Under the pieces are notes generated by a model, which saw nothing but the letters and a program-made list of their open reading frames with translations, had not been told where the DNA came from and did not search any database. From Eledone cirrhosa (taxonomy: Eukaryota), in contig OZ024742.1 in NCBI GenBank assembly GCA_964016885.1, positions 231,322,001-231,386,000 of the forward strand: a DNA stretch of 64,000 nt, in the 5' to 3' direction. Position numbers and translations under genes: made by a program. Below, one piece after another: positions 24,465-54,415 of this stretch; within the stretch, counting starts at the first letter, position 1; the number at the start of each line of letters is the position of its first letter.

Positions 24465-24669
24465 CAACAAAGAGGGTGTGGTAAGATACCAGGTTAACTA
24501 TAACACACCAGAGTACTCAATAACTTAGGGTAGTAGAGTGGGTAATAGGAAAAGAGTCAGGACCCCGACGGCTGAGCTCCGGCTGTTTCGAATGCTAGAT
24601 CCGAACTGTTCGGATCTAGCTTCCGAAACGGCCGGAGCTCAGCCGTCGGGGTCCTGACTCTTTTCCTAT
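24465..24669. mobile_element. (TA)n-embedded fold-back element with 62-bp inverted arms
   Basis: 24545-24606 and 24608-24669 are reverse complements (3 mismatches, 1-nt loop); the remainder is homologous to 54300-54415. Confidence 0.85.
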
Positions 24670-24907
24670 ATATATATATATGTGTGTGTGTGTGTGTGTG
24701 TGTGTGTGTGTGTGTGTGTGTGTGTGTGTGTGTGTATGTGTGTGTGTGTGTGTGTGTGTGTGTGTGTGTGTGTGTGTGTGTGTGTATGTGTGTGTGTGTG
24801 TGTGTGTGTGTGTTGGTGTGTGTGTGTTGGTGTGTGTGTGTTGGTGTGTGTGTATGCGTACATACATACATACATACATACATACATACATACATACATA
24901 CATACAT

Positions 24908-25361
24908 GATGGCTGCCAACCCGTTTTCGAGTACGGCCACTACTTTATATCCATGTAGGAGAACCCCTACCGATGGGCTGAACGAGTGTGACTTTGTCCA
25001 GCCAGCGACTTGAAAACTCTGGTACAAACACTACACTTGTGACAATCATTGACACTTAGTGCTGGGCCCATGGTACCATGTGACGACAAGTGCAGAGAGA
25101 TCTCCAGATATAAAGCAATGCCTGTGCCGTGAAGCTTTTATAGTGAGCAAAGGCACTGCACAAAGCCAGTCCCACTCTCTTAACCAATATGATATTTACC
25201 AAAAAGAAGAACAAGTCAACATCATTGGATACCATCAGGGTTGCAGGTGTTATATCAGAGTTTTCCTTCTCCTAGAATTCTGCCTTGACAAAGGCTAAGG
25301 GGTCATCTCTCCCGGTGATTTTGGATGGCCATTGACTCTTAAGAGCTCCTTTGCCCTTTGA
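24908..25361 (-). mobile_element. (TACA)n-embedded element with RTE 5'-UTR-like sequence
   Basis: Minus strand CTAGGAGAAGGAAAACTCTGA resembles a motif common in RTE 5' UTRs and derived SINEs; (TACA)n on both sides; shares segments with 8867-9106. Confidence 0.55.
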
Positions 25362-25559
25362 TACATACATACATACATACATACATACTTACATACATAC
25401 ATACTTACATACATACATACATACATACATACATACATACATACATACATACATACATACATACATACATACATACATACATAAGTATACATCTGTGTCT
25501 GAGTTTGTGTTTGTGTGTGCGTCTTCTCATGTTATCAATATCAACACATGAAATCAGAT

Positions 25560-26440
25560 GAGCAAAACATTCTTGAAAGTATAAAACACTATGACTGCAT
25601 CATATTCAAAATAATGACTTCACTTTTGTTTAATAAAATATTTTCTCAGATACTATAAACATTTGAATTAACAAACCACATGAAACCACATCAGCAAGAC
25701 ATTCTTGAAATATATAAAACAGTACTATGTCTGCCTCACAACGATCTTTCCACTAATAAAGGCACTTAAAACACTTAATCGACAGTCGATTCAAAAGATC
25801 CCAGACCTCATTCGCTTAACGAGTAAGGTGGAGCACGTCAAATCGGACCTAGGAAACAATGTTTCCATTGGTCTTTCAAATTGCTAATACTATCTGTCGG
25901 TCGCAAATCCAGGCAGAATTTCCACTAATAAAGTCACTTAAAATATTTGATTTAACAAACCACCTGAAACCACATCAGCAAGACATTCTTGAAATATATA
26001 AAACAGTACTATGTCTGCCTCACAACGATCTTTCCACTAATAAAGACACTGAAAACATTTGAATTAACAAACCACATGAATCTGCTTTAACAATTAACAT
26101 TCTTAAAATATATGATTTCTAGTATAGGCACAAGGCCAGTAATTGTTTGGGGGGTGGGAGGGAGTCGATTAAATCAATCCCAGTACATTACTGGTGCTTT
26201 ATTTTATCGACCCTGTAAGGATGAAAGGTAAAGTTAACCTCGGCGGGATTTGAACTCAGATCATACAGGGCCGTAACTCTATGCTGCAAAGCATGGCGTC
26301 CGACTCTCTACCGATACTGCCAATCCACCGCCCTTCTTAAAATATATAAAACAACTCTATGTCTGCATCACATTAAAAGATATTGTAGAAAGAAATTTCA
26401 CAATGATCTGTCCACTAATAAAGATACGATAGAAATTCTA
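25560..26440. repeat. ~115-bp tandem repeat (4-5 copies) interrupted by two insertions
   Basis: ACATTCTTGAAATATATAAAACAGTACTATGTCTGCCTCAC...TCCACTAATAAAG recurs. Confidence 0.8.
26114..26333 (-). mobile_element. tRNA-derived SINE, full-length with 14-bp TSD
   Basis: A-box TGGCAGTATCGG, B-box GAGTTCAAATCC, body CTTTCATCCTTAC.GGGTCGATAAAATAAAG; TSD TTCTTAAAATATAT at 26100-26113 and 26334-26347. Confidence 0.9.
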
Positions 26441-27214
26441 ATTCACAAACCCATTTTTAGATATAAATAATAGCAGGGCGCTCAGAGTTACCATTGCTAA
26501 AGAAATTTATTTCGTATTTACATTTTTACGTAATAAAATGAATGTTTACATTCGACTGGTAAATCTAGGCTATAGATTTTAATTTACATGGAATTATTTA
26601 TTTCCAAGGATTATTAATTCACCAACAGTTCACACAGCAAGTTTTTTTTATCTACTTTCACATATATTTATACGTGTATGTATTATATATATATATATAT
26701 ATATATATATATATATATGTGTGTGTGTGTGTGTGTGTGTGTGTGTGTGTGTGTGTGTGTGTGTGTGTGTATATATACTTACAGACACACATAGGCACAC
26801 ATACACATATGTATATAGATGTATATATATATATATATATATATATATATATATTATAAAATATATATATATATGAGATAGGGCGGTAGAGGGGTAGGGA
26901 GTGAGAGAGGGGGTGGGGAGTGAGAGAGGGTCTGGTGGAGAGAGAGGGGGAGAGGGAGAGAGATGGGGAGGGAGAGAGGGGGGAGGGTGAGAGAAAGAGA
27001 GAGAGAAGGAAAGAAAGAAAGAGAAATAGAAAGATTTCATGATAAACTAATTGACTATCACTTTTCTGTCTTGTTCGCAATCATCATAGACTTCCCACCA
27101 ACAACATCCTGGTAACGTCTTTATCCTCTATATACAATCGATATATAATCAATACTACATATATTTATATATCCCTCACTACCTCTCTCTCCTCTTCTCT
27201 CTCTCTCTCTCTCT

Positions 27215-27846
27215 ACTATATATATATATATATATACATACATACATACATACAAACATACATACAAACATACATACATACATACATACATACAAACATA
27301 CATACATACATACATACAAACAAACAAACAAACATACATACATACATACATACATGCATACATACATACATACATACATACATACATACATACATACATA
27401 CATACATTCATACATACATACATACATACATACATACATACATACATACATACATACATTCATACATACATACATACATACATACATACATACATTCATA
27501 CATACATACATACATACATACATACATACATACATACATACATACAAACAAACAAACAAACAAACATACATACATACATACATACATGCATACATACATA
27601 CATACATACATACAAACATACATACATACATACATACAAACAAACAAACAAACAAACATACATACATACATACATACATGCATACATACATACATACATA
27701 CATACATACATACATACATACATACATACATACATACATACATTCATACATACATACATACATACATACATACATACATACATACATACATACATACATA
27801 CATACATACATACATACATACATACATACATACATTCATACATATA
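27215..27846. repeat. (TA)n + (TACA)n/(AACA)n microsatellite
   Basis: Directly visible. Confidence 0.95.
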
Positions 27847-28095
27847 ATGAAAGACAGTTTTCCAATATTTCTCCAAGTTTTTCCTTTCATGTTTTTGTTA
27901 CTTAATACAATGGATAAAGCATTAGCGGGCTTTATATCATCTCATGCTTATTGTCTAGCATTGAACGACTAAATTCAACTGTCTTTCGTTTAACATGTAT
28001 ATATAGATGTGTGTGGATGCATATATGCATGTATGTACAGATAGATAGATATATATACAGACAGATAGATATATAGATGTATGTACAGATAGATA

Positions 28096-53100: not shown

Positions 53101-53134
53101 ATAATATATATATATATAGAGAGAGAGAGAAATA

Positions 53135-53315
53135 ATTGTTTCTACGTTTGGCACAAGGCCAGCAATTACTCAGTGCATTACTGGTACTTTATTTTATTGA
53201 CCCCGTAAGGATGAAAGGCAAAGCTAACCTCGGCGAGATTTGAACTCAGAATGGCAAGGGACGTAACTCTATACGTCAAAGCATCGCGTCCGACCCTCTA
53301 CCGATACTGCCAAAT
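53135..53315 (-). mobile_element. tRNA-derived SINE (family of 26114-26333)
   Basis: Same head and body motifs. Confidence 0.85.
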
Positions 53316-53393
53316 AATAAATTTGAAGACTAAAGTCCGAAGAGGGCTCGATAAGGCTAAATATATATCAAATATATAAGAACCGTAGAGCAA

Positions 53394-53528
53394 ATATTTA
53401 TTAAAATAACAAATTAAAGTTTAAGCAAAGAATCGCTACTTTCACTCTTAACGGGATCTTCAGAAAATCCCGTTAAGGGTGAAAGCAGCGATTTTTTGCT
53501 TAAACTTTAATGTTATTTTAATAAATAT
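53394..53528. repeat. Fold-back element (~65-bp arms) with a hammerhead-like core at the apex
   Basis: Arms are reverse-complementary with a few mismatches and one indel; minus strand reads CTGAAGATCCCGTTAAGAGTGAAAG, and the other arm has CCCGTTAAGGG. Confidence 0.85.
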
Positions 53529-53547
53529 ATATATATATATGTGTGTG

Positions 53548-53980
53548 AAGGCACATGGCTTAGTGGTTAGAGCATTGGGCTTGCAATCGAAAGGTTGTCA
53601 ATTCTCGGACCGGGTGATGTGTTGTTTCCTTGATCAAGACACTTTATTTCACATTGCTCCAGTTTACTCAGCTGTAGAAATGAGATGATAGGACTAGAGT
53701 CCCTATCATTCTACTGCAAAGAGGTCGTGGAGGTGCCACGGCAAAAAAGCACCCAGCCCACACTGTAAAGTGGACGTGTAGGCGCCACGGAAAAAAAAGC
53801 ACCCAGCACTCACTGTAAATGAGGTTGGTGTTAAGAAGGGCATCCAGCTGTAGAAATCAACCCAGAATCAGTTCCCGTATGAGCAAGACAAAGTCAGTCG
53901 ACCGGACACTGCCCACAACAGAACCCAGAACCTGTCTAACCCATGCTAGCGTGGAAGAACGGACGTAAAACGGTGATGAT
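53548..53980 (+). mobile_element. tRNA-derived SINE, full-length
   Basis: tRNA-like head, body, GAAGGGCATCCAGC motif and GATGATGAT tail. Confidence 0.85.
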
Positions 53981-54249
53981 GATATATATAACTATATATA
54001 TATATATATATCATCTTTCATCATTTCATTTTACGTCCGTTTTATTGGGTGGGACGGGAACTGATTCTGGGTTAATTTCTACAGCTGGATGCCCTTCCTA
54101 ACACCAACCTCATTTACAGTGAGTGCTGGGTGCTTTTTTTCTGTGGCACCTCCACTATATATAACTATATAGATATATATAGTAACTCCAAGTTACACTC
54201 CCTGGATGGATATATATATATATATATATATATATATATATATATATAT

Positions 54250-54415
54250 AGCCGTTTCAACAGCTATTTCTGGAGTCCAGAAATAGCTGTCGAAACGGCT
54301 TGAGCTCTGCCGTTGGGGTCTTGAACATTTTTCTATTACCCACTCTACTACCCCAAGTATTGAGTACTCTGGTGCGTTATGGTCCATCTGGTTCCTTACC
54401 ACACTTCCTTCGTGA
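54250..54415. mobile_element. (TA)n-embedded element with 25-bp terminal fold-back; homolog of 24465-24669
   Basis: AGCCGTTTCAACAGCTATTTCTGGA-G-TCCAGAAATAGCTGTCGAAACGGCT, then CTATTACCCACTCTACTACCC..TATTGAGTACTCTGGTG matching the reverse complement of 24500-24550. Confidence 0.85.

Follow-up and report, generated by a model that had tools for sequence, protein, structure and literature searches.

What process leaves four near-perfect hairpins in the TA-rich DNA of a single locus? The question is raised by a 64,000-nucleotide stretch of the Eledone cirrhosa genome (assembly GCA_964016885.1, contig OZ024742.1, forward-strand positions 231,322,001 to 231,386,000), which is part of our contig C3 and is referred to here as the window; whole-genome searches took in the 3.0-Gb assembly. 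An initial annotation had read the hairpins as non-autonomous, retrozyme-like RNAs of Penelope-like element (PLE) origin, the cDNA of which had snapped back at stem II of a hammerhead ribozyme, the resulting hairpin loci being potential substrates for ADAR or RNAi pathways. The PLE origin is borne out. The hairpins are by-products of autonomous PLEs, neither retrozymes nor miniature inverted-repeat transposable elements (MITEs), and they are probably the shortest head-to-head insertions of such elements of the Hydra clade, made by two primed cDNAs that ran off a capped RNA 5′ end and were joined.

The four hairpins

All four palindromes were recovered with the positions and arm lengths first reported: 24545-24669 (element 1, arms of 62 bp), 52375-52619 (element 2, arms of 103 bp and a loop of 39 nt), 54250-54300 (element 4, arms of 25 bp) and, for element 3, a 45-bp ungapped core at 53413-53511 that extends across a 2-nt indel to approximately 66 bp, reaching 53394-53528. 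No other non-microsatellite hairpin in the window scores at least 22, and each of eight Markov-shuffled controls contained none. The palindromes are real and chance is ruled out by these controls.

The build is the same in each case. One arm continues into a tail of 75-90 nt and the other halts at a TAT before the tail, a position that we call start site 1 of reverse transcription. Elements 1 and 4 belong to one family (A), element 2 to a second (B) and element 3 to a third (C). Positions with a sign are counted from the A of TTAGT (families A and C) or of CCAGT (family B), which is +1. The arms are as follows.

24465 to 24607, minus strand: tail-bearing arm of element 1 (family A, subfamily A2), with +1 at 24607, the hammerhead 3′ half, a 77-80-nt tail and (TA)n
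24608 to 24669, plus strand: tail-less arm of element 1, from +2 to the TAT of start site 1
52375 to 52477, minus strand: tail-less arm of element 2 (family B), from about +64 to start site 1 (+175)
52478 to 52701, plus strand: tail-bearing arm of element 2, beginning at about +10 and ending at (TA)n
53313 to 53461, minus strand: tail-bearing arm of element 3 (family C), from +7, its tail a few nucleotides short and adjoining a short interspersed element (SINE)
53461 to 53528, plus strand: tail-less arm of element 3, from +5/+6 to start site 1 (+70), the arm junction yielding an apparent CTGAAGA
54250 to 54273, minus strand: short tail-less arm of element 4 (family A), from +27 to +4
54274 to 54413, plus strand: tail-bearing arm of element 4, with +1 at 54274 and the tail running to (TA)n

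In element 2 an internal deletion has taken out the 5′ strand of hammerhead stem I and the first half of the core from the tail-bearing arm; GAAAC lies at 52556-52560 and the predicted cut falls after 52567. In element 4 GAAAC occupies 54292-54296, the predicted cut falls after 54314 and the cleavage triplet of this copy is altered to GUU. The TA context and the mirrored TTTC and GAAA are as originally described, with the caveat that a TTTC mirroring GAAA is no more than its reverse complement, and the (TA)n embedding attributed to every element fails for element 3, the tail end of which meets the SINE. Elements 1 and 4 are homologous, as had been noted. They do not fold at different points: +1/+2 and +1/+4 represent the same site, and the letters at the apex differ because the two copies come from different subfamilies.

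Contigs from four sequencing runs over 52300-52700 contained family pieces in two runs and none that crossed the hairpin, which weighs neither way. Pieces of a tRNA-headed SINE, 95-98% identical, lie inverted around element 3 (52770-53100, 53528-53990 and 54010-54150) and could fold back over a longer stretch than the hairpin itself. Elsewhere in the window an ORF (open reading frame) of 366 amino acids at 45995-47095 (plus strand) encodes a C2H2 zinc-finger array.

Three families of autonomous elements

To avoid bias toward the query apex, counts of arm ends and asymmetry leave out the top-match loci and rest on the first copies found by tail motif along contig C1 (72 of A, 71 of C and 30 of B). 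Exact tail-motif counts in the assembly are 32,393 for A (a 24-mer with three degenerate positions), 11,357 for C and 235 for B (a 28-mer), B being an older family; first-look candidates numbered 1,644 with element 4, 4,663 with element 3 and 1,753 with element 2. A TA run directly follows the tail in 67/72 A, 56/71 C and 27/30 B copies.

Followed upstream, all three families run into an ORF with reverse transcriptase (RT) and then a C-terminal GIY-YIG domain. The arrangement is intact and in tandem in A. In C and B the order was read from broken copies, and for B the link to the ORF is a 2.9-kb 3′ region common to loci L140, L141 and L154. The short copies are 5′-truncated pieces of these elements. 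Nor are the families unrelated, as had been proposed: A, B and C have a tail motif in common, CTCTAC...TATYGAG, and related proteins (53% over 345 amino acids for A against C, 35% over 148 for A against B). In tandem copies the tail runs into the leader, and an ATG follows at about +232 (A), +203 (C) or +300 (B).

The family A ORF has 717 codons' worth of protein, with YRDD at residue 348 and IYQC/YIG at 592/606. RWR and DKT are found in A and C, and the decayed copies of B, with MWR/WRA and NKT or DMT, are a weaker match. The CxCX5C linker, CxxC and CxH are all present in A and in C; B retains CxxC and CxH, the first cysteine of the linker being missing in the copy read (L154). Pfam matches were weak, GIY-YIG being matched in B only (E=0.003) and nothing in A or C. 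By hand count about 45 of 109 scored family A matches hold open frames of at least 784 codons. Nine of ten long A proteins read are 717-722 amino acids long and 97-100% identical, and several lie within 3.53-kb tandems, so that one A subfamily is young. Such tandems occur at L356-L358 and inverted pairs, with the tail on one arm only, at L359-L362.

These features place A, B and C very probably in the Hydra clade, an assignment made by motif match and by comparing the published supplementary proteins by eye. Craig et al. 2021 (PMC8557442) describe for that clade an octopus member, Hydra-1_Obim, a single ORF with RT and C-terminal GIY-YIG, the motifs RW(K/R), DKT, CxCX5C, CxxC and CxH, (TA)n targets, and a pseudo-long terminal repeat (pLTR) and tail with an inverted 5′-truncated copy, such copies being typical of PLEs. 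These features of ORF, target and ends recur here, the motifs less completely in B, and the published 3′ end of Hydra-2_Amil carries the same CTCTAC...GAGCACT tail motif. There are differences from that account. Units reach 3.5 kb (A) or more (B) as against less than 3 kb, tails are 75-90 nt rather than 30-40 nt, the hammerhead cores are non-canonical, and among inverted pairs in A the very short ones prevail. None of A, B or C matches by eye the hammerhead given for Hydra-1_Obim, and six motifs of 10-14 nt from the three families were not found in the supplement of that paper, in which line breaks may hide matches. Naiad PLEs, in the same paper, also have (TA)n targets and inverted ends and occur in octopods; membership was rejected since their endonuclease is N-terminal and the one here C-terminal. 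Recently active Penelope-like families are on record for Octopus vulgaris (PMC13282606).

Could MITEs that target TA, or foldback DNA transposons whose terminal repeats are fixed, have produced the same hairpins? The TA context and the hairpin shape would suit them, yet the inverted repeats are not terminal, the tail lying outside them, junctions and 5′ lengths differ from copy to copy, and the families extend into RT ORFs. We regard this explanation as extremely unlikely. The many different junctions agree with the earlier proposal that each inversion arose with its own insertion.

Other PLE remains were seen alongside these families. L149 (4748-5980, minus strand) and L127 hold further Hydra-like RT ORFs unlike A, B or C, so more families are present. 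The window contains, at 1031-2470 (plus strand), the C-terminal 479 amino acids of another PLE ORF (RT, CxxC, YIG), not Hydra-like by eye, and in the 3′ region of this ORF, at 2748-2780 (plus strand), a hammerhead core of canonical type, CTGACGA...GAAA. The 3′ ends of further PLE-like families, overlooked at first, lie at 3000-3130 (minus strand) and 52266-52367 (plus strand), with canonical CTGAAGA cores and (TA)n ends; the latter directly adjoins element 2 and its GAAA is changed to GACA. Copies of A, B and C are often stacked within one TA tract, and tail-to-tail and nested A copies occur at L004, L017, L018, L029, L203 and L295.

Where the arms end and how they are joined

An inverted arm abuts 57/72 A, 23/71 C and 17/30 B copies, C being richer in long copies. 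Counting inner ends between -60 and the tail, the interval -4 to +9 holds 74 of 121 in A (uniform expectation 13.8), 20 of 43 in C (4.7) and 18 of 41 in B (2.4), with values near -295 in family C, which stem from an indel in the reference copies, counted as long. In all three families this pile-up, 4 to 7 times the uniform value, falls at a YYAGT site that precedes the ATG by 200-300 nt. The outer end of the tail-less arm is fixed, at +61 to +63 in 47/57 A, +70 in 21/23 C and +175 in 17/17 B copies. There are two fixed outer ends, start sites 1 and 2, each at a TAT and 75-90 nt apart. GAAA lies at +19 (A), +27 (C) and about +106 (B), which puts the common stop some 18, 26 and 105 nt upstream of it, respectively; the stop does not follow stem II, as fold-back there would have it.

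Exact hairpins with both arms reaching +1 number 1,586 in family A. The first 50, tallied by hand, have as spacer a single C or G (21), C...G (8), a single T (2), A/T runs (12), nothing (5) or another sequence (2). G...C spacers, which a minority C variant would give, were absent from these 50. The parental base at -1 is T in 37/43 long copies; like the hammerhead core tallies below, this count scanned all loci collected, including top matches biased toward the query apex. The extra, non-templated base at +1 in family A is often a G, a cap-like mark, and within one young A subfamily it is G in L335 and C in L339 and L343, from which we take the junctions to form afresh. Reverse transcriptases are known to copy the cap as an extra G. 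The added base may thus be a G acquired at a capped RNA 5′ end at an initiator-like (Inr-like) motif, and the YYAGT site would be the transcription start of the pLTR.

An internal pLTR promoter has a precedent. Penelope of Drosophila virilis has an Inr/DPE (downstream promoter element) promoter inside its pLTR and, on the flanks of its partial tandems, inverted repeats that vary in size (Schostak et al. 2008, PMC2377424); it differs in belonging to another clade and in that, in the part of that account available to us, the start site is not linked to the inversion point. The leader of family A has TATTTA at -31 to -25 (e.g. in L358), a TATA-box distance from +1; this sequence is also a strand of hammerhead stem II, and its conservation is not independent evidence.

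The arms might instead be two cDNAs halted by structure in the RNA, by a protein bound to it or by a block at a 3′ splice site or branch point, with ordinary non-templated addition supplying the extra base. A YAG lies six to seven nucleotides downstream of the stop in A and C, TTAGTCCAG and TTAGTTTCAG look like 3′ splice sites, introns are known in PLE pLTRs (PMC2377424), and arm ends are scattered over +1 to +9. Such a block sits poorly with the added base, which in 21 of 23 single-base spacers is C or G and which coincides exactly with +1 instead of the AG, and with an Inr-like motif common to the three families and found in subfamily A2 as well (L123, L125). We consider it improbable.

A capped start leads to the following scheme. 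The element protein would nick both strands of a (TA)n site and prime two cDNAs on opposite strands, at the two internal start sites of the RNA leader; a dimer could serve both strands, as shown in vitro for another PLE. Both cDNAs would probably run off the capped 5′ end and be joined end to end by template jumping or microhomology. Read-through RNA from tandem copies, in the same reaction, would give the kilobase-long inverted pairs, and a minority of arms may derive from hammerhead-cut RNA. The biochemical parallel is Poseidon PAc of Anolis (Frangieh et al. 2024, PMC11167929), which in vitro nicks and extends both target strands, at AT-rich targets, and begins reverse transcription at two internal sites that bracket the tail, as here. 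The start sites of PAc are located within its ORF and lack homology to the cleaved DNA; A, B and C have theirs in the 5′ leader, each at a TAT that could pair with a TA primer. A CTC...GAG motif follows each of the six start sites by eye, the minimum free energy (MFE) fold giving that stem in three of six. The second such motif lies beyond the inserted end of the short copies, which are consequently likely to be unable to regenerate the tail and to be dead ends.

Is a second cDNA required? Alternatively a single tail-primed cDNA could reach the RNA 5′ end, snap back and copy itself until the TAT of site 1 annealed to the TA target, the asymmetries arising from later deletion or flipping within the palindrome. 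In R2, snap-back of a completed full-length cDNA is on record (PMC11371274), microhomology with the target is available in the TAT at site 1, and the arms usually share subfamily and rare variants. Snap-back predicts, however, that at birth the tail arm is never the shorter and is the sole carrier of an extra base. Among 97 pairs an arm length difference of at least 8 nt favours the tail-less arm in 30 and the tail arm in 21, and in L359, a young kilobase-scale pair with arms 99.7% identical, the tail-less arm is the longer by approximately 660 nt. Of the 21 single-base cases, 20 were examined for the position of the extra base: the tail-less arm carries it in 10 and the tail arm in 9, one not being orientable; the first group includes L339 and L343, from a subfamily with T at -1. 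A spacer of type C...G (8/50) calls for a non-templated addition to each arm, a loop of 0-1 nt leaves too little room for self-priming, and the arms of L308 come from two different subfamilies. We judge snap-back unlikely. An extra base on either arm, and either arm being the longer, favour two separately primed cDNAs, which, as the arms are mostly of one subfamily, would come from one RNA or from sister RNAs.

Several observations count against two cDNAs from a capped start. The sharing of subfamily and rare variants by the two arms is as snap-back also predicts, the mean distance being 1.8 within copies and 5.5 between them (38 copies; the lower value includes one mis-paired row, L196). Once inserted, a palindrome can flip or be shortened unevenly by deletion, events that could make the tail-less arm seem the longer or exchange C and G. 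Target duplications, in 3/87 cases against none in six shuffled pairings, are too few to use. The extra-G signal is strong only in A, with 7 G among 11 non-T cases in C and one case in B; in family B most of the short arms begin at +2; inspection by eye showed no DPE match; and the samples come from the beginning of contig C1, the first 18 Mb for A and the first 43 Mb for C. As a separate observation, the young inverted pair L360 is flanked on both sides by a direct repeat, on the scale of 40 nt, of a composite microsatellite, such as staggered nicks would leave.

Hammerhead-like folds and their consequences

Neither the window nor an unfolded family A copy gave a hammerhead match with Rfam, and a scan of the window for canonical CTGANGA found three sites, none of them inside the four elements. 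Unfolded copies of A, B and C nevertheless form type I hammerhead folds, with variant cores where CTGANGA had been expected upstream of GAAAC. GAAA thus does mark the 3′ half of a hammerhead-like fold, the core of which is variant in every family. In A the core is UUGA-N-AA in 18/20 unfolded copies, N7 taking all four bases, with G10.1-C11.1 and a GUC triplet; the MFE fold of L108 is a three-way junction. In B it is CUGAAAGA, with one extra base, in 37/48 copies, and stem III is minimal. In C it is CAGAAGA (U4 to A) in 67/69, with a U.U pair at the base of stem II as in published Hydra-clade hammerheads (PMC8557442). CTGAAGA occurs in none of the 69, so the motif thought to be kept at the apex of element 3 owes its T to the joining of the arms. 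The minimal hammerheads of PLEs are likewise type I and located in pLTRs; those of Schistosoma carry a U3-A8 core variant, as in A, and minimal stem III is matched in B (PMC4209133). The MFE folds of B and C agree only partly with the hammerhead model. In the stems 94% of cells pair with one two-sided change, no better than shuffles (379/500), the copies being too alike.

Cleavage may have left a trace in A. Ten of 38 arm ends within +10 to +54 fall at +40 to +43, the predicted cut being after +41 (p=0.0014), and 16-17 of 53 short A arms start at +42 in a search that was biased; there is no such peak among family C arms. We take this second, smaller peak as a hint of hammerhead cleavage in vivo.

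Folds in all three families, a common stop within loop II in A and some A arms that begin at the predicted cut would be in keeping with the original model of retrozyme-like RNAs folding back at stem II. The stop, though, coincides with stem I in family C and is no part of the fold in B, every family consists of pieces of ORF-bearing elements, and short A copies wholly lack the 5′ core half. This half lies approximately 45 nt upstream of +1, so RNA starting at +1 could not form the ribozyme. Retrozymes are non-coding tandem units with a ribozyme in each (bioRxiv 10.64898/2026.07.22.740005); here there are single head-to-head insertions from coding elements, the short A copies with half a ribozyme, and tandem arrays of short units were absent from the 173 sampled copies. 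The model is very unlikely to be correct.

What is known already is the kind of element and its inverted ends, inverted pLTRs being a recognised peculiarity of PLEs (PMC8969392). The apex account, with cap run-off and two primed cDNAs, and the three hammerhead variants were not found in print, and a literature search that mostly left out subscription papers yielded no paper in which a capped start is connected with the inversion points of PLEs. Craig et al. 2021 (PMC8557442) leave the origin of tandem and inverted PLE structures undefined, and the in vitro study of PAc (PMC11167929) ends before joining and second-strand synthesis. The junctions supply a specific, testable rule of two start sites, two cDNAs and cap run-off, for which family A offers an intact 717-amino-acid protein and a defined RNA leader. 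Three variants of the hammerhead core that escape Rfam are a further addition.

Taken together, a broader reading can be offered, tentatively. The genome may record the PLE reaction in vivo, in which a dimer on two repeated leader stem-loops primes both (TA)n strands and copies to the cap, so that every inverted PLE end would be two cDNAs head to head. In A transcription would begin within loop II of a U3-A8 hammerhead, self-cleavage would be confined to tandem read-through RNA, and the choice of start site is a possible switch for the ribozyme. Rough extrapolation gives approximately 19,000 hairpins with stems of at least 40 bp (40/72 x 32,393 for A and 7/71 x 11,357 for C). An element with an intact, near-identical ORF may thus have seeded on the order of 20,000 such hairpins, a large potential supply of double-stranded RNA.

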